From NCBI GenBank assembly GCA_031459385.1, contig JAVKIP010000007.1, positions 64,001-128,000 on the forward strand: a stretch of DNA of 64,000 bases, read 5' to 3'. Below, piece by piece: positions 309 to 64,000 of this stretch. A model generated the notes under the pieces. It did not search any database. It saw nothing but the letters and a program-made list of their open reading frames with translations, and was not told the origin of the DNA. Both the position numbers and the translations under genes were made by a program. The DNA comes from Candidatus Fervidifonticultor secundus (lineage in GTDB: Bacteria > Sysuimicrobiota > Sysuimicrobiia > Sysuimicrobiales > Humicultoraceae). Within the stretch, counting starts at the first letter, position 1; each line of letters opens with the position of its first letter.

Positions 309-1169
309 ATGGATCGCGCACTCGCGGGGCGTGACCGTGCCAACCGTCTGCTGGATCGCTACGGCCGCCTGCTGACCACCCGGCAGCGGGAGTTCCTGGT
401 GCGGTACTACCAGGACGACCTCTCGCTGGGTGAGATCGCGACGCAGCTGCACATCTCGCGGCAGGCGGTGCACGACGGCCTGCGGCGGGCCCTGGGCATG
501 CTGGAGCGGTTCGAGGCCGCCCTGGGGCTCGTGGCCGGCGCGCAGCGCGCCGGCACGGAGCACTACTTCTCGCGGACCCCGCGGTCGGCCGCGCAGCCCC
601 GGACCGTGCGCGCGACGCTCCGCGGGCGCCCGTGGGCGTTCCAGGTGGCCCGGGGCGTGTTCGCGCGCCGGGGCGTGGATGCGGGCACCCGCCTGGTGAT
701 CGAGACGATGCAGATCGACCCCACCGACCGGGTGCTCGACCTGGGCTGTGGTTACGGCGCCATTGGCTTGGTGGCCGCAGCGCTAGCGCCCCGGGGCAGC
801 GCGTGGCTGATCGACGCCAACGCGCGTGCCGCGGCGCTGGCCCGCGCCAACGCCGCAGCCAACCACCTGGCCAACGTGGCGGTGCTCGTCGGCGACCGCG
901 CCGCGGCCATCCGGAACGCCTCGATGGACGTCGTGGTCACCAACCCGCCGATCCGCGCGGGCCGGCGCGTGGTGACGGCCTTCATCGATGACGCCCACCG
1001 TGTGCTCCGGCCGGGCGGGCGCTTCTACCTGGTGGCGCGCACCGCGCAGGGCGCCAGGACCCTGGCGCGGCTGATCGAGGCGCGGTTCGGCAGCGTGCGG
1101 CAGGCGGCGCTGCGCGCCGGCTACCGCGTCTACGAGGCAAGGCGCGGCCCGGAGCCCGCGGGTGTTTGA
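309..1169 (+). CDS. YlxM-family HTH protein fused to an RsmC/YbxB-like class I SAM methyltransferase
   Basis: N-term LLDRYGRLLTTRQREFLVRYYQDDLSLGEIA...SRQAVHD (YlxM); then EHYFS...GVF...VDAGTRL, VLDLGCGYG, TNPP (small MTase); no stop codon between the two. Confidence 0.85.
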   Translation: MDRALAGRDRANRLLDRYGRLLTTRQREFLVRYYQDDLSLGEIATQLHISRQAVHDGLRRALGMLERFEAALGLVAGAQRAGTEHYFSRTPRSAAQPRTVRATLRGRPWAFQVARGVFARRGVDAGTRLVIETMQIDPTDRVLDLGCGYGAIGLVAAALAPRGSAWLIDANARAAALARANAAANHLANVAVLVGDRAAAIRNASMDVVVTNPPIRAGRRVVTAFIDDAHRVLRPGGRFYLVARTAQGARTLARLIEARFGSVRQAALRAGYRVYEARRGPEPAGV

Positions 1170-55916: not shown

Positions 55917-57179
55917 GTGACCGGCACCGCCGCGCTGCCCCCCATGTTCCGGATCGCCCGGCGCCTGCCGCGGCCGCGCGTGGGCGATCCCGGCCGCGCC
56001 ACCGAGGACGCCCTGGCCCGCCTGGACCTGGCCCCGCGCGTCGCCGGCCGCCGCATCGCTGTCACCGCCGGCAGCCGGGGCATCCGCGACATCGTTCCCG
56101 TGCTGCGCGCAGTGGTCGCGCACCTGCGGCGCCTGGGCGCCGACCCCGTGGTCGTGGCCGCGATGGGCAGCCACGGCGGCGGCGTGGCCGACGGCCAGCG
56201 CCGGGTCCTTGAGCACCTGGGCATCACCGAGGCCGCGCTCGGGGCGCCGGTCTCCACCGCGATGGAGGCGGAGGTCGTCGGGCGCACGCCGGAGGGCCTC
56301 CCGGTCTGGTGCGATGCGGTCGCCGCGGCGTGCGACGGCATCGTGGTGGTCAACCGCATCAAGGAGCACACGGGGTTCTTCGGGCCGTTCGGCAGCGGTC
56401 TGATGAAGATGCTGGCCGTCGGGCTGGGCAAGGTGGCGGGCGCCTCCCAGGTCCACCGCCACGGTCCCGGCGCTCCCATGGCCGGGGCGATCCGCGCCAT
56501 GGCCCGGGTCCACCTGGCCCGGGGCGCCGTCGTGGCCGGGGTCGCGATCGTGGAGAACGCCTACGACGAGACCGCGCACATCGAAGTGGTCCCGCCCGAG
56601 CACCTGCCCGAGCGCGAGCTGGAGCTGTTCGGCCTGGCCCAGCGGCTGCGTCCGCGGTTGCCGCTGGACGACCTGGACGTGCTCATCGTGGATGCGATCG
56701 GCAAGGACTATTCGGGCACCGGCATGGATCCCGTGGTGGTGGGCCGGATGCGCGTGCCCGGGCTGCCAGAGCCCCCGGCGCCGCGCATCCGGCGCATCGT
56801 GGCGCTGCGCCTGTCGGCCGGGTCGGAAGGCAACGCCCAGGGCGTGGGCCTGGCTGATCTCGTGACGCAGCGCCTGGTCGACGCCATCGACCGGCGGGCC
56901 ACCTACCTGAACGCGATCACGAGCACGTTCCTCCAGCGCGCGTTCATCCCGGTGACGCTGCCCTCGGATCGCGACGCGATCACCACGGCCCTGGACACGC
57001 TGGGTCTGGCCGACCCGCGCGAGGCCCGCATCGTGCGCATCGCCAACACGCTGCATCTGGAGACGCTGCTGGCATCCGAGGCGGCGGTGGCGGCGCTGCG
57101 GGGGCAGGAGGGGCTGGAGATCGGCGGACCCGTGCCGTGGCGCTTCGCGCCCGACGGCCAGCTCGCCGACCTGCCGTGA
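55917..57179 (+). CDS. LarA N-terminal-like (DUF2088) protein
   Basis: AVTAGSRGI, AMGSHGG, VNRIKEHT, SGLMKMLAVGLGK, GKDYSGTGMD. Confidence 0.75.
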   Translation: MTGTAALPPMFRIARRLPRPRVGDPGRATEDALARLDLAPRVAGRRIAVTAGSRGIRDIVPVLRAVVAHLRRLGADPVVVAAMGSHGGGVADGQRRVLEHLGITEAALGAPVSTAMEAEVVGRTPEGLPVWCDAVAAACDGIVVVNRIKEHTGFFGPFGSGLMKMLAVGLGKVAGASQVHRHGPGAPMAGAIRAMARVHLARGAVVAGVAIVENAYDETAHIEVVPPEHLPERELELFGLAQRLRPRLPLDDLDVLIVDAIGKDYSGTGMDPVVVGRMRVPGLPEPPAPRIRRIVALRLSAGSEGNAQGVGLADLVTQRLVDAIDRRATYLNAITSTFLQRAFIPVTLPSDRDAITTALDTLGLADPREARIVRIANTLHLETLLASEAAVAALRGQEGLEIGGPVPWRFAPDGQLADLP

Positions 57180-57988
57180 TCGGGCCCGTGCGTCAGGGCG
57201 CCCTGGACGCGGCCGTGGCCCGGCTGCGGAAGGCCCGCGCGGCCGTGGCGTTCACCGGCGCGGGCATCAGCACGGCGTCGGGGCTCCCCGACTTCCGCTC
57301 GCCCCAGGGCCTGTGGGCCACGGTCGACCCCGCCACCGTCGCCTCGCGCTCCGCCTTCGAACGCGACCCCCGGCGGTTCTACCAGTTCTACCGCGAGCGC
57401 CTCGACCGGCTCCGTCATGCCGCCCCCAACGCCGCCCACCACGCCATTGCGGCGCTCGAGCGCGCCGGCCGGCTGCGCGGGGTGATCACGCAGAACGTCG
57501 ACGGTCTGCACCAGGCCGCCGGCTCCCGGCGGGTGATCGAACTGCACGGCAACCTGCGGGAAGCGGTCTGCCCGCGCTGCGAGGAGCTGTGGCCCATCGC
57601 CGTGGTGGTCGAGGCGCTGGCGCAGGACCGGGTGCCGCTGTGCCAGCGGTGCGGCGCGGTGCTCAAGCCCAACGTCGTGCTGTTCGAGGACCTGCTCCCC
57701 GCGCGCGCGTGGCAGGCGGCGGCCGCGCTGGCCCGGGCGGCGGATGTGATGCTCGTCGTGGGGTCGTCGCTCCAGGTGACCCCCGCGGCCTACCTTCCCC
57801 AGGACACCCTGGATGCCGGCGGCGTGCTGGTGATCGTGAACCGCGAGCCCACGCCCTACGACGATCGCGCGGCGGTCGTCCTTCGCGCCGACGCGGCCCT
57901 GGTGTTGCCCGCGATCGCGGCCGCGCTCGGCGCCTGGGAGGACCGCTGCGACGCGCCGCCGAATCACTTCCCACAGCCAGAGGAGTAG
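57176..57988 (+). CDS. cobB: NAD-dependent protein deacylase (sirtuin)
   Basis: TGAGISTASGLPDFRS..GLW, TQNVDGLH, HG, CxxC...CxxC, KPNVVLF, GSSL.V.PAA. Confidence 0.93.
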   Translation: MIGPVRQGALDAAVARLRKARAAVAFTGAGISTASGLPDFRSPQGLWATVDPATVASRSAFERDPRRFYQFYRERLDRLRHAAPNAAHHAIAALERAGRLRGVITQNVDGLHQAAGSRRVIELHGNLREAVCPRCEELWPIAVVVEALAQDRVPLCQRCGAVLKPNVVLFEDLLPARAWQAAAALARAADVMLVVGSSLQVTPAAYLPQDTLDAGGVLVIVNREPTPYDDRAAVVLRADAALVLPAIAAALGAWEDRCDAPPNHFPQPEE

Positions 57989-58047
57989 ACCCCGCGGCCC
58001 GGCGACGCCGGGCCGATTCGTGTGTGGCGGCGCGAGGTGGTCACGGC

Positions 58048-58845
58048 ATGGTCCAGGCGGAGATCGGCGTGTTCGGCGGCTCGGGATTCTACGCGCTGCT
58101 GGACGACGCGCAGGAGATCACCGTCGAGACGCCCTACGGCCCGCCCAGCGACACGATCACCGTGGGCGAGATCGCGGGGCGGAGGGTCGCATTTCTCCCG
58201 CGGCACGGGCGGCGACACCAGTATCCGCCCCACGCCATCAACTACCGCGCCAACGTGGCCGCGATGAAGCAGCTGGGGGTCACGCGCCTGCTGGGACCGT
58301 GCGCGGCGGGCAGCCTGCAGCCCCATGTGCGTCCGGGGGAGTTCGTGCTGTGCGACCAGGTCGTGGACCGCACCGCCGGCCGGAAGGACACGTTCTACGA
58401 CGGCCCTGAGACGGTCCACGTGAGCCTGGCCGATCCGTACTGCCCGCAGCTCCGCCAGGTCGCCTGGGAGGCGGCGCAGCGCCTGGCCGTGCCGGTGCAC
58501 CGCAGAGGCACCGTGGTGGTCATCCAGGGGCCGCGCTTCTCCACGCGCGCCGAGAGCCGCTGGTTTCGCGCCGCCGGCTGGGAGGTCATCAACATGACCC
58601 AGTACCCCGAGGTGGTGCTGGCGCGCGAGCTGGAGCTGTGCTATCTGAACATCTCCCTGATCACCGACTACGACGTGGGGGTCGAGGGCGATCCGACCGC
58701 GAGGCCCGTCACGGCCGAAGAGGTGCTCAAGGCGTTCGCGGCCAACCTCGGCCGCCTGCGCGAGCTGCTGGGCGCCATCATCGCGGCGATCCCCGCGGAG
58801 CGCACGTGCCCCTGCGGGCGGGCCCTGTCCGGCGCGCGCGGGTAG
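58048..58845 (+). CDS. mtnP: S-methyl-5'-thioadenosine phosphorylase
   Basis: GVFGGSGFY, TPYG.PS, LPRHG..H, GPRFSTRAES, NMT..PE, TDYD. Confidence 0.93.
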   Translation: MVQAEIGVFGGSGFYALLDDAQEITVETPYGPPSDTITVGEIAGRRVAFLPRHGRRHQYPPHAINYRANVAAMKQLGVTRLLGPCAAGSLQPHVRPGEFVLCDQVVDRTAGRKDTFYDGPETVHVSLADPYCPQLRQVAWEAAQRLAVPVHRRGTVVVIQGPRFSTRAESRWFRAAGWEVINMTQYPEVVLARELELCYLNISLITDYDVGVEGDPTARPVTAEEVLKAFAANLGRLRELLGAIIAAIPAERTCPCGRALSGARG

Positions 58846-58915
58846 CGCCGGGTCCGGGCGCTGCGGGGCGAGGCGTGCGGGACGGGCTGCGGCAGAGGAC
58901 GCGAGGAAGGCAGGG

Positions 58916-59209
58916 ATGCAGATGCGACGATCCACCGACGACCCGTCGGGCAAGTGGATGGGCCTGGCCGTGTTCCTGCTGGGCGTGGTGTTCCTGACGA
59001 TCGTCTTCATCATGGCGTACCGGGACGTGGTGGCCTCCGGGGTGCTGGGCAGGGTGGCCGCCGCCGGGCCGACGCCCGAGCCTGGCCCTGCCCTGGTGGC
59101 CCTGGCGATCAAGGGCGTCCTGCTGGTCGTCATGGCCGTCGCCGGCGGGGCGCTGGCCAACCGGGGCATCGGCCTGTACGCGGCCGCGCGTGGGTCCGAT
59201 GAAAGCTGA
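58916..59209 (+). CDS. Small two-TM hypothetical protein
   Basis: Two clear hydrophobic helices; codon use matches the host; fills the mtnP-ltaE gap. Confidence 0.65.
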   Translation: MQMRRSTDDPSGKWMGLAVFLLGVVFLTIVFIMAYRDVVASGVLGRVAAAGPTPEPGPALVALAIKGVLLVVMAVAGGALANRGIGLYAAARGSDES

Positions 59210-60263
59210 GCTCTCCCGCTCGCAGGTGGCCGCGGGGCACGTCATCGACCTCCGCAGCGACACCGTCACCCAGCCGACGGACGCGATGCGCGAGGCCATG
59301 GCCCGGGCCGAGGTCGGCGACGACGTGTACGGCGAGGACCCCACCGTCAACGCGCTGGAGGCGCTGGCAGCCTCGCGCACGGGCAAGGCCGCTGCGGTGT
59401 TCCTGCCCACGGCGACGATGGCCAACGCCGTGGCCGTGCTGAGCCAGACGCAGAGGGGGGACGAGGTGATCGTCGAGGCCGAGTCCCACCTCTACAACAT
59501 GGAGGCGGGGGGCCTGAGCGCGCTGGCCGGCGCGATCCCGCGGCCGGTGGTCACGGAGCAGGGCGTCATCAGGGTCGCGCAGCTCGAGGCCGCGCTGCGC
59601 CCGCCCGACCCCCACCACGCGCCAGCCCGGCTGGTCGCGCTGGAGAACACCCACAACCGCCACGGCGGGACCGTCGCCACGCCCGAGGAGACCGACGACC
59701 TGGGGGCTGCGGCGCACCGCGCGGGGCTGCGGTTCCACCTGGACGGCGCGCGCCTGTTCAACGCGGCGGTCGCGCTGGGCGTGCGGGCCGCGCGGCTGGC
59801 CGCCGCCGCCGACACCGTCACGCTGTGCCTGTCCAAAGGGCTCTCGGCGCCCGCCGGCGCGCTGCTGTGCGGCGACGCCGAAGTCATCGCCGTGGCCCGG
59901 CGCTTCCGCAAGATGCTGGGCGGGGGCATGCGCCAGGCCGGGGTCCTCGCCGCCGCGGGCATCGTGGCCCTGGAACAGATGGTCGACCGGCTGGCCGACG
60001 ATCACCGCACAGCCCGGGCGCTGGCCGAGGCGCTGGCGTCGGTCCCTGGCGTGGCCGTCGAGCTGCACCGGGTGCAGACCAACATCGTCCGCATCGAGGT
60101 GCCCGGGCGCGATGCGCGCCAGGTAGCCGCCCGGCTGCGCGAGCTGGGCGTGCGGGCCAGCGTGATCGGCGCCGCGCGCCTGCGGCTCGTGACCCACCGG
60201 CACGTGGGCCCCGACGACGTGCCGGTGGTGCGCGAGGCATTCCGTGCCGCGCTCGGGGGTTGA
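59199..60263 (+). CDS. ltaE: Low-specificity L-threonine aldolase
   Basis: DLRSDTVT, GDDVYGEDPTV, LENTHN, HLDGARLFNA, CLSKGL.AP, GGGMRQAG. Confidence 0.96.
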   Translation: MKAELSRSQVAAGHVIDLRSDTVTQPTDAMREAMARAEVGDDVYGEDPTVNALEALAASRTGKAAAVFLPTATMANAVAVLSQTQRGDEVIVEAESHLYNMEAGGLSALAGAIPRPVVTEQGVIRVAQLEAALRPPDPHHAPARLVALENTHNRHGGTVATPEETDDLGAAAHRAGLRFHLDGARLFNAAVALGVRAARLAAAADTVTLCLSKGLSAPAGALLCGDAEVIAVARRFRKMLGGGMRQAGVLAAAGIVALEQMVDRLADDHRTARALAEALASVPGVAVELHRVQTNIVRIEVPGRDARQVAARLRELGVRASVIGAARLRLVTHRHVGPDDVPVVREAFRAALGG

Positions 60264-60342
60264 TGACTACGCCGGCGCGCCGCTGGGCATCTGCTCTTCG
60301 AGGGTCGTGCCGCCGCGCTTGGCCAGCCGCGCCTGGCCAAAA

Positions 60343-60369
60343 GAAGGAGATCGCGGCGCGGTCGCGAAT
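60343..60369 (+). promoter_or_regulatory. Candidate SigH-like promoter of the small peptide gene
   Basis: GAAGGA-N17-GAAT matches the spacing of the Firmicutes sigma-H consensus AGGA...GAAT. Confidence 0.4.
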
Positions 60370-60425
60370 ATACGCGCGCGAAGACGGGCGACCGTCACGC
60401 GCGCGTTCGAAAGGAGGCGACCTCG

Positions 60426-60470
60426 ATGGCCAAGAAGGCGAAGAAGGCGGCCAAGAAGAAGGGCAAGTAG
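60426..60470 (+). CDS. 14-aa Lys-rich peptide MAKKAKKAAKKKGK
   Basis: AAAGGAGG SD 8 nt before the ATG; all eight Lys codons are AAG; followed by an intrinsic terminator; below the ORF-track cutoff. Confidence 0.7.
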   Translation: MAKKAKKAAKKKGK

Positions 60471-60495
60471 CTCGCTGGCTGCCTTGCGGATGGGC

Positions 60496-60536
60496 AAGGG
60501 AGCACTGCAGGCGCGGTGCTCTCTTCTTTATTGTTT
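60496..60536 (+). terminator. Intrinsic terminator
   Basis: AAGGGAGCACTG-caggcg-CGGTGCTCTCTT stem followed by CTTTATTGTTT. Confidence 0.8.
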
Positions 60537-60544
60537 GGGCGCGC

Positions 60545-61906
60545 TCAGAACCGGCGAAAGTACCCTAGCCCCAGGGTCGGCGACTGCAGGAGGTCGGTGG
60601 CGCGCAGGGTGATGCCGTAGTCGCGGTGGAGGAAGTAGGACGCGTAGAGGTTCAGGGTGAGGCGGTTGAGGTTGGAGAGGTCCAGGGAGTACACGGGGCC
60701 CGGCGGTGTCCCGTAGTCGACGCCAGCGCCGAGCTGCGAGTCCACCAGGCCGTAGCGCAGGAAGACCGGCGGGCGCTGCAGCCACTGCCCGACCTGCAGC
60801 CCGATCCGGTTCTCCATGCCCACGTCCCGCCAGGTGAAGATGTAGCGCCGCGGCGCGTCGGGGAGCAACGTGAACATGACGTCGTGGCCCAGCCGCGTCG
60901 TGTACCACAGCTCGTACTGGAGGCGGTAGCTGGTGCGCAGGTCGGGCAGCTCCAGCCGCTCCGGTACCACCCGGTTCACGCGCTCGACGACCCGGTCGGC
61001 CCGCTGGATCAGCGCCCGGGCTTCCCCCACCGCCTGGCGCGCTTCGGTGACCGCCGCCTGCGCCTCGCCCAGCGCCACACGCACCTGCCGGATCTGCGGC
61101 TCGTTGATGACGCCCTGCAGGTCCCTGACCATGCGGTCGATGCCCTGCGCCGCGCGCTGCACGGCGGCCACCGTCTCGCGCACCTGCTGCGCGGTCTGGC
61201 CCCCCGCGGCCACGTCCGCCACCAGTGCCCGCATGTCGTGGGCCGCGGCGGCCAGGTCGTCGGCGGTGGCCCGCACGCCGGCCATCACGGCGGGCACGTC
61301 TTGCCCGGCCATGCGCTCCAGGGTGCGCGTCATGCGGTCCACGGTGTCGGCGACCCGGCGCATGACCGCGGTCGCCTCGCGGGTGTTGCGCACCGCCTCG
61401 GCCAGCGCCTGGCCCAGCTCCGGATCGCCGATCAGCCGGTTGACGTGCCCGAGAGCGTCTTCCGCCTGGCGCGCGACGGCGATGACTCGGGTGATGACGT
61501 CCTCGACCGTGAACGGGTCCAGCCCCTGGACGACGCTCTCGGGCGGCAGCGGTGGCGCAGTGGGCAACCCGGGCGAGATGGTGACGAACCGCTCGCCCAG
61601 CAGGCCCGTGGTGGCGATGGCGAAACGCGAACCCTGCGGGATGGCGAACCGGGACCGGATGCGCAGGACGAGCTCGGCCTGGCCCGACGGCGTGAGCCCG
61701 ATGGTGCGCACCTCCCCGATCTGCACCCCTGCCATCTGGACCGGCGCGCCCTCGACCATGCCGCCGGCGTTGCCGACCCGTAGGCGGATCACGTAACGGG
61801 GCTCGAACAGCTCGGTCACGCCCCCGCTCAGGAAGACCACGGCGCCCAGCAGCGCCGCCACGAAGAGGACGACGGCCACGAGCCCGACTCTGGCTTCAGT
61901 GGTCAT
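60545..61906 (-). CDS. mlaD: MlaD/MCE protein with a long helical stalk and a probable C-terminal beta-barrel
   Basis: EARVG plus TM; AGGM..GAPVQMAGVQIGEV, GLLGERFV.I.PG (MCE); heptad region; alternating beta-strands ending LGLGYFRRF. Confidence 0.9.
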   Translation of the reverse strand: MTTEARVGLVAVVLFVAALLGAVVFLSGGVTELFEPRYVIRLRVGNAGGMVEGAPVQMAGVQIGEVRTIGLTPSGQAELVLRIRSRFAIPQGSRFAIATTGLLGERFVTISPGLPTAPPLPPESVVQGLDPFTVEDVITRVIAVARQAEDALGHVNRLIGDPELGQALAEAVRNTREATAVMRRVADTVDRMTRTLERMAGQDVPAVMAGVRATADDLAAAAHDMRALVADVAAGGQTAQQVRETVAAVQRAAQGIDRMVRDLQGVINEPQIRQVRVALGEAQAAVTEARQAVGEARALIQRADRVVERVNRVVPERLELPDLRTSYRLQYELWYTTRLGHDVMFTLLPDAPRRYIFTWRDVGMENRIGLQVGQWLQRPPVFLRYGLVDSQLGAGVDYGTPPGPVYSLDLSNLNRLTLNLYASYFLHRDYGITLRATDLLQSPTLGLGYFRRF

Positions 61907-62694
61907 GTGCGCACGACCTCGGCGCCCGACATGAGGAACCCCCGCACAACCGGATGGGACGACGCGCGGATCGCCGCGGGCGTGCCGGCGGCGATCAGGC
62001 GGCCGGCGTCCATCACAGCCAGCCTGTCGGCCAGCCGGAACGCGCTGGCCAGGTCGTGGGTGACGACGACGGCCGTGGTCCCCAGCTCGGCCCGCAGGCG
62101 CAGGATCAGCTCGTCGACGGCGCGGGCCGTGACCGGGTCCAGGCCGCCGGTGGGCTCGTCGTAGAGCAGGAGATCCGGCGCCAGCGCCAGCGCCCGGGCG
62201 ATGCCCACGCGCTTGCGCATGCCCCCCGACAGCTGCGCGGGCATCAGCGACTCGGCGCCCGCGAGTCCGACCAGGGCCAGCAGCTCGCTGACCCGGGCGT
62301 CGACGGCGCGCGGGCTCATCCGGCGGTGGCGGCGGAGGGGGAAGGCCACGTTCTGCGCCACGGTCATCGAGTCGAACAGCGCGGCCGACTGGAAAACCAC
62401 GCCCACCTGCAGGCGCAACGCGTTCAGCTCCTCCTCGGGCAGGGTGTGCACGGGCTGGCCGAAGACATAGACCAGGCCGCGGTCGGGCCGCAGCAGCCCC
62501 ACCAGGTGCTTGAGGAGCACGCTCTTGCCACACCCGCTGGGGCCCATGATGACCTGCACCTGGCCCCGCGCCACCTCCAGGGTGACGCCGGCCAGCGCCT
62601 GCGTGGCCCCGAATGCTTTCCAGACGTCCTGCACGCGCACCACCACGTCGCCGTCGGCGGGCTGTGGTGGCGTCGCGGGAGCCGCGCCGGCCAT
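61903..62694 (-). CDS. mlaF: MlaF ABC ATPase
   Basis: GPSGCGKS, FQSAALFDSMTV, LSGGMRKRVGIARA, YDEPT.GLDP. Confidence 0.93.
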   Translation of the reverse strand: MAGAAPATPPQPADGDVVVRVQDVWKAFGATQALAGVTLEVARGQVQVIMGPSGCGKSVLLKHLVGLLRPDRGLVYVFGQPVHTLPEEELNALRLQVGVVFQSAALFDSMTVAQNVAFPLRRHRRMSPRAVDARVSELLALVGLAGAESLMPAQLSGGMRKRVGIARALALAPDLLLYDEPTGGLDPVTARAVDELILRLRAELGTTAVVVTHDLASAFRLADRLAVMDAGRLIAAGTPAAIRASSHPVVRGFLMSGAEVVRT

Positions 62695-62696
62695 CG

Positions 62697-63503
62697 CTAC
62701 CTCACCTGGAAGAGGAGCTGGTTCAGGAAGTAGTTGACGGCCATGATCAGCACGATGGCGCTCACGACCGCGCCGGTGGCCGCGCGCCCCACCCCTTCCG
62801 CGCCGCCGCTGGCGTGCAGCCCGCGATACGCGCCCACGGCGGCGATGATGAGCCCGAAGAAGACCGCCTTCAGCAGGCCCGCGTAGAGATCCCACGTCCA
62901 GGTGAACTGCCGCAGCGAGGCCCAGAACGACCCGGCCGGCACGCCGGCGGCCACCGCCACGAACGAGCCCCCGACGGCGCCCACGACCTCCGCGAACATC
63001 GTCAGCACGGGCAGGGCCACCGCAGCGGCCAGCAGCCGGGGCACCACCAGGAAGCGCACCGGGTCCGTGGCGAGCACCCGCAGCGCGTCCACCTGCTCGG
63101 TCACGGTCATCGTGCCCAGCTCGGCCGCGATCCCCGCGCCCACCCGGCCCGCCGTGACCATGGCCGTGAAGACCGGGCCGGCCTCTCGCGCCAGCGAGAC
63201 GCCCACCAGGCCGCCCACGAAGCCCTGCGCCCCGAACTTGCGGAACACGCCCGCGGTCTGGTAGGCCAGGACCATGCCGGCGAACAGCCCGGTGACCAGC
63301 ACGATGAAGATCGAGTCCCAGCCGATGCGTTTCAGCTGGACGATCGTCTCGCCGAGCTCCAGGTGGCCCCGCCGCACCCAGCGGAAGGCCTGCACCAGCA
63401 TCCCTGCGGCGCGGCCGGTGTCGGCGAGCACCGCCAGGACCGCCCGGCCGGCGGCGGCCAGCCCCCCGGCCGACGGCTCGCGCGCGAGCGCCCCGTTGCT
63501 CAT
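62697..63503 (-). CDS. mlaE: MlaE permease
   Basis: REAGPV, GRVGAGIAAELGTM.VTEQVDAL, P...LVVPR, GAEGVGRA.T.AVV. Confidence 0.95.
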   Translation of the reverse strand: MSNGALAREPSAGGLAAAGRAVLAVLADTGRAAGMLVQAFRWVRRGHLELGETIVQLKRIGWDSIFIVLVTGLFAGMVLAYQTAGVFRKFGAQGFVGGLVGVSLAREAGPVFTAMVTAGRVGAGIAAELGTMTVTEQVDALRVLATDPVRFLVVPRLLAAAVALPVLTMFAEVVGAVGGSFVAVAAGVPAGSFWASLRQFTWTWDLYAGLLKAVFFGLIIAAVGAYRGLHASGGAEGVGRAATGAVVSAIVLIMAVNYFLNQLLFQVR

Positions 63504-63560
63504 CGCCTGACTCTCTTCGGTGCGGCCGCAGGCCGATCCCTCTGCGGCGGCCGCACCGCG

Positions 63561-63589
63561 TTGACGCCGCCCCCCGCCGATGCTATACT
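63561..63589 (+). promoter_or_regulatory. Sigma70 promoter of the infC operon
   Basis: TTGACG-N17-TATACT with extended TG. Confidence 0.8.
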
Positions 63590-63607
63590 CCGCCCGGTTG
63601 TGCGGCC

Positions 63608-63718
63608 CTAAGAAGAAGCCATCCGCTTCTCACCCGAGCGCCCCCAGGGTGCGCCTCGGGTGGCCGCAGTGCGAAGGGTTCCTGCGGGGATGGCGTGGGC
63701 CGTCCCCGCTTGAATTTC
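63608..63718 (+). ncRNA. Ribosomal protein L20 leader (infC-rpmI-rplT attenuator)
   Basis: AGAAGC-CATCC-GCTTCTCACC signature, CACCCGAG...CTCGGGTG stem, terminator-like GCGGGATGGC...GCCGTCCCCGC-TTGAATTT; directly upstream of infC. Confidence 0.75.
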
Positions 63719-63764
63719 CACCGTCCGGCCGGGGTGCCGGCGGGTGGCCGGGAGGGCGACAGGC

Positions 63765-64000
63765 ATCGACCGCGAGATACGGGTCAACGAGCGCATCCGC
63801 GCACGCGAGGTACGGCTGATCGGGCCCCACGGTGAGCAGCTGGGAATCCTGCCGACGCGCGATGCCCTGGCGAAGGCGCAGGAACACAATCTGGACCTCG
63901 TGGAGGTCGCGCCAACCGCCACCCCGCCCGTCTGCAAGATCATGGACTTCGGCCGGTACAAGTACGAGCAGAGCAAGCGCGAGCGCGACGCGCATCGCAA
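63765..64000 (+). CDS. infC: Translation initiation factor IF-3, 5' part (runs off the window)
   Basis: [20 protein letters not shown]...LDLVEVAP...[26 protein letters not shown] start. Confidence 0.95.

Follow-up and report, generated by a model that had tools for sequence, protein, structure and literature searches.

The stretch of DNA analyzed here, hereafter called the window, comprises 64,000 nucleotides (nt) of contig JAVKIP010000007.1 (positions 64,001 to 128,000) of Candidatus Fervidifonticultor secundus, a member of the Sysuimicrobiota. It has a G+C content of 72%, the same as that of the 3.3-Mb genome (72% G+C). Near its end lies a short lysine-rich open reading frame (ORF) with its own signals for transcription and translation, which we call the mini-gene. 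A translated microprotein gene is the clear best reading of this element, because the comparative evidence supports it, and we consider it very probable that the mini-gene is real and translated. An initial annotation had placed here a promoter of the form AGGA-N17-GAAT, a 5′ hairpin with a GNRA loop, a Shine-Dalgarno (SD) sequence and the ORF. Direct reading of the sequence recovered all four at their positions.

The ORF (60426..60470, + strand) starts with ATG, reads MAKKAKKAAKKKGK and ends with the stop codon TAG (60468-70). It encodes 14 residues, eight of which are Lys; in synthetic form the peptide is AKKAKKAAKKKGK. The SD sequence AAAGGAGG (60410..60417, +) is located 8 nt upstream of the ATG at 60426. 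Further upstream, a motif resembling a SigH-type promoter (60345..60371, +) consists of AGGA at 60345-48, a 17-nt spacer and GAAT at 60366-69. It is followed by the 5′ hairpin (60372..60406, +), whose 9-bp outer stem ACGCGCGCG/CGCGCGCGT encloses a 5-bp inner stem, GACGG/CCGTC, with the loop GCGA. Downstream of the ORF, a terminator scan disclosed an intrinsic terminator (60496..60536, +), i.e., a G+C-rich stem-loop succeeded by a U tract. The latter had been proposed as well, together with a stem of 12 bp; according to the scan, the stem comprises 13 pairs (seven of them G-C; 60496-60525) with the loop AGGC and the T-rich tail CTTTATTGTT. Within 2 kb around the mini-gene, the scan gave three terminator-like sites, as compared to 0.3 expected from shuffled sequences.

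Both the minimum-energy and the centroid fold contained a predicted 10-bp helix between the middle of the ORF (60444-53) and the 3′ untranslated region (UTR; 60476-85; 60444..60485 as a whole, +). A 6-bp hairpin, CCTTGC (60482-60487)/GCAAGG (60494-60499), had been described as a competitor of the terminator. It resides in the sequence (60482..60499, +) and overlaps the terminator, with which it shares just four basal pairs, but it was absent from both predicted folds. The 180-nt stretch of the mini-gene folded at -84 kcal/mol versus -70 ± 4.2 kcal/mol for shuffled sequences (z = -3.3), better than 200 of 200 shuffles. Searches of the window region with the covariance models of Rfam 15 yielded chance-level matches only (E up to 10), and the contigs of one metatranscriptome run, compared with positions 56000-64000, gave mostly short pieces from other organisms and no usable match at the mini-gene.

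The flanking genes were confirmed by Pfam, which agrees with the proposal of a stand-alone unit between ltaE and a convergent mlaD. Upstream and co-directional lies a threonine-aldolase-like gene (59190..60263, +; Beta_elim_lyase PF01212, E = 2.7e-100), while the next gene downstream is convergent and codes for an MlaD-domain protein (60545..61873, -; PF02470, E = 1.4e-17) ending in ...GYFRRF. This protein possesses a long C-terminal extension, of which Pfam recognizes the MlaD domain alone. Its aromatic C-terminus (YRF, RRF or KRF) is kept across the order and resembles an outer-membrane beta-signal.

A second copy, synteny and coding selection

The whole genome was searched for SD-preceded ORFs of 8-45 codons with more than 50% Lys. 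Only two were obtained, the window copy, whose type (60345-60536 region) we term class A, and a paralogue (G000:C59:56399-56457(-)), whose type we term class B. The paralogue encodes the same 14-residue peptide from a GTG start and is equipped with its own hairpin, SD sequence, 3′ UTR and terminator. In this genome, the only differences between the two ORFs concern the start codon and two third codon positions, and their flanks are unrelated. The identity of the class A and class B peptides in the window's genus suggests that gene conversion made the former equal to the latter.

An alignment was prepared of 18 class B transcripts, one from an unpublished genome being left out. The 16 of the 18 rows that were of full length contained ten distinct DNA sequences of the ORF and one single peptide. 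Variable sites amounted to 0/13, 0/13 and 5/13 at the first, second and third codon positions, respectively (Fisher p = 0.002, a value overstating the significance since the relatives are not independent). SD, start and stop were present in all mini-ORFs that were read. A longer ORF beginning at an upstream in-frame start was rejected, as the extension is not conserved and a 1-nt insertion between SD and start shifts the frame in one relative (L014).

To search the whole order, the C-terminus of the MlaD protein was used as anchor; it matched in 29 of 61 genomes. At 18 of these 29 loci, belonging to three GTDB families, a Lys-rich mini-ORF was found convergent to the MlaD orthologue and within 450 nt of it (5/13 in the window's family, 12/12 in family f5 and 1/1 in family f7). 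The end of a threonine-aldolase-like gene was also read by eye 5′ of the mini-gene in relatives. Thus, the interval of the ltaE-mlaD type holds an SD-preceded, Ala/Lys-rich ORF in other genomes too, the very relationship that the initial annotation had suggested looking for. The 11 syntenic loci without the mini-ORF comprise six genomes of one genus, all class B carriers, two loci truncated at the end of a contig and three further loci. The mini-ORFs have 11-14 residues in the window's family and 27-30 residues with AAKK, TAKK and PAKK repeats in f5 and f7. Sequence and length drift across the families, while the Ala/Lys composition, the SD and the stop are retained.

Among 20 regions fetched from relatives, 18 contained Lys-rich, SD-preceded mini-ORFs of 11-30 residues, the exceptions being L072 and L083, and each homologous ORF that was read had an SD of the GGAGG or GGGGG type at similar spacing. 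By a DNA search of 40 relatives, the window locus was recovered at 87-89% identity in two genomes of the same genus; the region of the class B ORF turned up in numerous genera. As judged from these comparisons, the mini-gene is conserved across the phylum and present in two copies in this genome. The coding-selection pattern, the second genomic copy and the synteny in relatives all speak for the unannotated mini-gene that had been claimed.

The promoter and SigH

According to an excerpt of PMC12456013, SigH promoters are composed of AGGA at -35 and GAAT at -10, separated by a spacer of 17-18 nt. At 60345-60369, both elements are present at 17-nt spacing, and AGGA-N17-GAAT was found at the same place in all 11 class A loci of the family that were read (11/11). 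Other families show AGGA-N17-GTAT or GTAA instead of GAAT; the pattern AGGA-N17-G[AT]A[TA] matched in 15 of the 18 syntenic loci with a mini-ORF. When the spacing between AGGA and GAAT was varied in a scan of the whole genome, 34 matches were counted at N17 versus 5-17 at the other out-of-codon-phase spacings. The genome also encodes a full-length SigH equivalog (G000:C11:57690-58283(-); TIGR02859, 350.8 bits versus a cut-off of 294.8, over positions 1-198), one of 13 sigma-70-family genes, which is itself preceded by a TTGACG-N17-TATAAT promoter. SigH scored above the cut-off in 54 of the 61 genomes of the order, a tally including the unpublished genome G010.

AGGA...GAAT as a housekeeping promoter was ruled out, because tRNA genes use promoters of the TTGACA/TATAAT type: in 56 tRNA upstream regions the AGGA motif was found 0 times, a TAnA[AC]T -10 region in 34, and the latter plus TTGnnn at 16-18 nt in 16. 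Intergenic AGGA-N17-GAAT copies are situated 5′ of divIC, mraZ, a sigma-factor gene, thyX and an M24 peptidase gene. The copy upstream of mraZ (G000:C57:2222-2320) is interleaved with GTGGG repeats, which we take to be MraZ boxes, and 16 of 19 genomes of the family have retained it (three rows having been dropped, one cut by a contig end and two from unpublished genomes). Two contigs (G000:C20 ~285 (-) and C56 ~16 (+)) share at their ends an identical sequence containing an AGGA-N17-GAAT match, probably a repeat at which the assembly was interrupted.

Transcription of class A is probably SigH-dependent. The initial annotation had assumed control by an alternative sigma factor in stationary phase. 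The conserved motif and the encoded SigH are in line with the first part of this assumption. In Firmicutes, the SigH regulon is turned on at the transition out of growth, and by analogy we infer the same timing for this lineage. Searches for Spo0A (best match 68 bits versus a cut-off of 200, receiver domain only) and SpoIVA (not found) disclosed no sign of endospore formation. An endospore protein was ruled out, as neither Spo0A nor SpoIVA was found. A term search of the text of PMC11604079, a paper on the phylum in which chemoautotrophic enrichments of the family are described, showed that the words sporulation, sigma and small protein do not occur in it.

Possible functions and comparison with known systems

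We propose that the interval contains one monocistronic gene, whose product is a translated microprotein. Most likely it would be transcribed from the AGGA-N17-GAAT SigH-type promoter and thereby switched on with the SigH regulon. Its mRNA of ~160 nt would combine a 5′-proximal hairpin, presumably a stabilizing element, with an SD match of 9 nt and a strong terminator. After likely removal of Met, a 13-residue Ala/Lys polycation would remain, which would act in trans as a free, unstructured polycation on the phosphates of nucleic acids with little sequence specificity. Nucleoid DNA would be the first candidate target, by charge neutralization and compaction, and ribosomal RNA the second.

A binder of polyanions or nucleic acids is proposed because the peptide contains eight Lys, no hydrophobic residue and the motif KAAK, and because its homologues contain PAKK and AAKK. 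An excerpt of PMC5676037 describes KAAK and PAKK motifs as marks of the DNA-binding tail of HupB and of histones H1/H5, and the HupB tail as needed for DNA binding. The likeness of an AKK-rich polycation to histone H1/HupB tails, which had been pointed out before, is borne out by KAAK in the 14-mer and PAKK in a 30-residue homologue belonging to a different family. A type I toxin was ruled out, as the peptide has no hydrophobic residue. The 27-30-residue homologues with AKK/TAKK/PAKK repeats are, as far as the sequences tell, the older form. That the sequence evolves through repeats and changes in length suggests a polyanion binder of loose specificity; a specific site on the ribosome is conceivable as well, given that class B is strictly invariant. 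We are somewhat inclined to regard the peptide as a nucleic-acid-binding polycation, and should it be one, DNA appears a little more probable as its target than the ribosome. For the explanation as a whole, a SigH-driven microprotein acting as free polycation on nucleic acids, we see about an even chance.

Apart from the non-independence of the relatives, several observations weigh against this explanation. The window-type copy is absent at the syntenic site in six genomes of one genus. As AAG repeats favor in-frame slippage, in-frame changes in length are weaker evidence than they appear. Variable columns in the class B leader numbered 5/34 versus 5/13 at third codon positions; the UTRs are as conserved as the peptide, which indicates that a function at the RNA level is also under selection. 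The promoter region of class B exhibits AGGA-N18-GAAC, a conserved upstream TTGTGT and a TATAT element resembling a -10 region, and its type is ambiguous as far as can be read from it. The MraZ-box-like GTGGG repeats may explain part of the conservation of the mraZ motif. Provided that SigH geometry is as we assume, class A transcription would begin at about 60377, within the 5′ arm of the hairpin's outer stem, which clashes with a compensatory change in that stem; the conservation of the stem might be due to read-through of the upstream gene or to a closer start site. The pattern used to find similar genes in other phyla demanded the last nine residues, which introduces an ascertainment bias into the matches. 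Finally, the evidence at hand would fit DNA, the ribosome or another polyanion without telling them apart.

Searches of NCBIfam and Pfam with four of the 27-30-residue homologues produced nothing but noise up to E = 10. The 30-residue homologue is present letter for letter in a protein atlas, where the neighboring clusters consist of hypothetical proteins of 29-38 residues; among the clusters to which a Pfam family is assigned, HC2 comes closest (0.86) and offers a lead only. A text search of the literature did not find the peptide strings, and among the matches listed by word searches there was no relevant account of lysine-rich small proteins. Neither Rfam nor, for the homologues, Pfam and NCBIfam provided a matching family, and the suggested function of the peptide is deduced from its chemistry.

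Among the other explanations, a tiny ribosome-associated protein is possible, though doubtful. The peptide would occupy a specific pocket or bridge of ribosomal RNA, like eL41, bS22, bL37 or bTHX, or join the ribosome in stationary phase like Sra. Size, charge and the stand-alone organization of the gene are alike, and the very strong SD and the two gene copies suggest a high output. A class B peptide that stays invariant over ten DNA versions is more readily understood as the ligand of a specific site than as a loose counter-ion, and the bL31 protein of another bacterium (L021) ends in the same KKAAKKKGK tail. However, evolution by repeats at the level of the order, with lengths of 11-30 residues, is unlike the fixed tiny ribosomal proteins, no family match was obtained for the 27-30-residue homologues, and a SigH-type rather than a housekeeping promoter would be unfit for a core ribosomal protein.

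Clearly less likely is a regulatory RNA, either dual-functional or non-coding, in which the ~160-nt transcript would base-pair or bind a protein and the ORF would be incidental or load ribosomes for stability. Leaders, segments of the 3′ UTR and the core of the terminator stem are strongly conserved, and part of the 3′ UTR is predicted to pair with the purine-rich ORF. Inspection by eye of other class A loci also showed pyrimidine-rich stretches of the 3′ UTR that complement the ORF, and in class B an invariant helix of 8 bp joins the end of the ORF to the 3′ UTR. The class B leader (L002:1444-1597(-) and 17 orthologues) may adopt two mutually exclusive folds. The first contains the 5′ hairpin GACGGCA/UGCCGUC; the second, consisting of GCCGUCC/GGACGGU and a CUUCC/GGAGG helix, buries the SD and the GTG and is the alifold consensus of the 18 sequences. 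As all pairs of this switch are invariant across genera, covariation is uninformative either way and lends it no support. In the class B terminator, the alignment revealed compensatory changes at six pairs. The core GAGCACTGC/GCAGTGCTC of the class A terminator stem is unchanged across genera and only its loop varies; for a plain terminator, conservation of this kind in the absence of covariation is unusual.

The 5′ hairpin at 60372-60406 is kept in the two same-genus relatives with the loops GTAA and GGAA, and its outer stem bears a compensatory change there (ACGCGT/ACGCGT to ACACGT/ACGTGT). The CCTTGC/GCAAGG hairpin is kept in these relatives, too. Leaders of other genera mostly contain some hairpin, two are devoid of any, and RNAalifold predicted 0 pairs for ten class A leaders, indicating that the members of the family do not share the 5′ hairpin as a homologous structure. 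Covariation of the hairpin, raised in the initial annotation, thus holds within the genus, with one compensatory change, and fails across genera; on these data, support for the hairpin is limited to the genus. Against an RNA as the main product speak the purely synonymous variation of the class B ORF and the fact that the paralogues share ORF and SD but not their flanks. Moreover, RNA sequence and length change across families, while an Ala/Lys ORF together with its SD and stop is preserved without exception, and no Rfam match was obtained either for the window region or for six related loci. The dual-function small RNA that had been put forward as an alternative is weakened; the strong conservation of the UTRs is in its favor.

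It is very unlikely that the ORF acts in cis as a sensor, its eight Lys codons reporting lysyl-tRNA supply or ribosome pausing and deciding only what becomes of the mRNA itself or of a neighboring gene. The dense Lys codons, the small hairpin overlapping the base of the terminator and the pairing of the ORF with the 3′ UTR would suit such a device. But the next gene is convergent, also in 18 of 18 syntenic loci carrying the mini-ORF, the alternative hairpin touches only four of the 13 terminator pairs, and class B has the same peptide in different surroundings. A leader-peptide attenuator was ruled out, since the downstream MlaD gene is convergent and no co-directional gene follows the terminator. 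A chance ORF in an intergenic spacer, conceivable for 14 codons of low complexity, is hardly credible in view of the conservation, the paralogue, the synteny, the codon-position pattern and the finding of just two such ORFs genome-wide.

Free polycations of the kind proposed here may be encoded in other phyla as well. One genome per species was scanned for the last nine residues plus stop, which yielded 40 stretches. Twenty were class A or B loci of the lineage, 14 were tails of longer proteins (including a bL31), one ended with TGG instead of a stop, and five were SD-preceded mini-ORFs outside the lineage, three of them in Acidobacteriota and one each in metagenome-assembled genomes (MAGs) of the Phycisphaerales and the Planctomycetales. 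The Acidobacteriota gene consists of a TTGACA-N17-TATACA promoter, a conserved leader of ~105 nt, an SD, an ORF of 14-18 residues beginning with MKKTAKK... and a terminator; a stand-alone Lys-rich gene of this kind was present in 7 of 11 genomes of one order. Its promoter (L088, L089, L090-L094) is of the sigma-70 type, near to the consensus and provided with an A/T-rich upstream element, and its leader contains GGCUCAACAUGUUGAGC and the palindromic UUCCCGCCGGCGGGAA. Rfam searches of six related loci gave chance-level matches only (E up to 1), and the Acidobacteriota leader is without an Rfam match. In the Planctomycetales MAG (L012 ~601-630 (-)), a 29-residue SD-preceded ORF has a Cys-rich N-terminus (MCNCCGC...) and a Lys-rich tail ending in KKAAKKKGK. 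The Acidobacteriota and Planctomycetota genes appear similar in kind to the Sysuimicrobiota mini-genes, a likeness of architecture that does not imply kinship.

A tentative and rather unlikely generalization would be that free, gene-encoded oligolysines of 11-30 residues constitute an overlooked, widespread class of polycations, a kind of "peptide polyamine", produced when needed from dedicated, highly structured mini-mRNAs in phyla including Sysuimicrobiota, Acidobacteriota and Planctomycetota. In the lineage studied here, they would belong to a SigH program of a non-sporulating phylum and serve to compact the nucleoid or to silence ribosomes at the end of growth. The peptide might, for instance, remain within the anionic exit tunnel of the very ribosome that synthesized it. 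As gene finders skip such short ORFs and trypsin destroys the peptides, abundant small polycations could, as an entire class, escape standard genomics and proteomics. The mini-gene would offer a testable case, with two loci per genome, conservation throughout the phylum, a defined promoter class and an easily synthesized peptide. In addition, a sigma factor of the SigH type and its class of promoters would be at work beyond the Firmicutes, in organisms for which Spo0A and SpoIVA were not detected; this bears on the role of SigH before sporulation evolved.

With the SigH promoters of Bacillus, Clostridioides and Sporomusa, the mini-gene shares AGGA at -35, GAAT at -10 and the 17-nt spacer, and a SigH equivalog is encoded. 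It differs from these systems by its host, a candidate phylum outside the Firmicutes with neither Spo0A nor SpoIVA found. Like the tiny basic ribosomal proteins eL41, bS22, bL37 and bTHX and like Sra, which in E. coli is induced in stationary phase, the peptide is very small, very basic and separately encoded. Unlike it, the ribosomal proteins are Arg-rich and have fixed, non-repetitive sequences. With the tails of HupB (MDP1) and H1/H5 it has in common the low-complexity Ala/Lys polycation, with KAAK in the 14-mer, PAKK in the 30-residue homologue of G030 and AAKK in the 27-30-residue homologues. Those tails, however, are long and joined to an HU or globular domain, whereas the mini-ORFs are free-standing, encode 11-30 residues and have their own promoter and terminator. 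By analogy, the peptide may work like an H1/HupB tail without belonging to those protein families.
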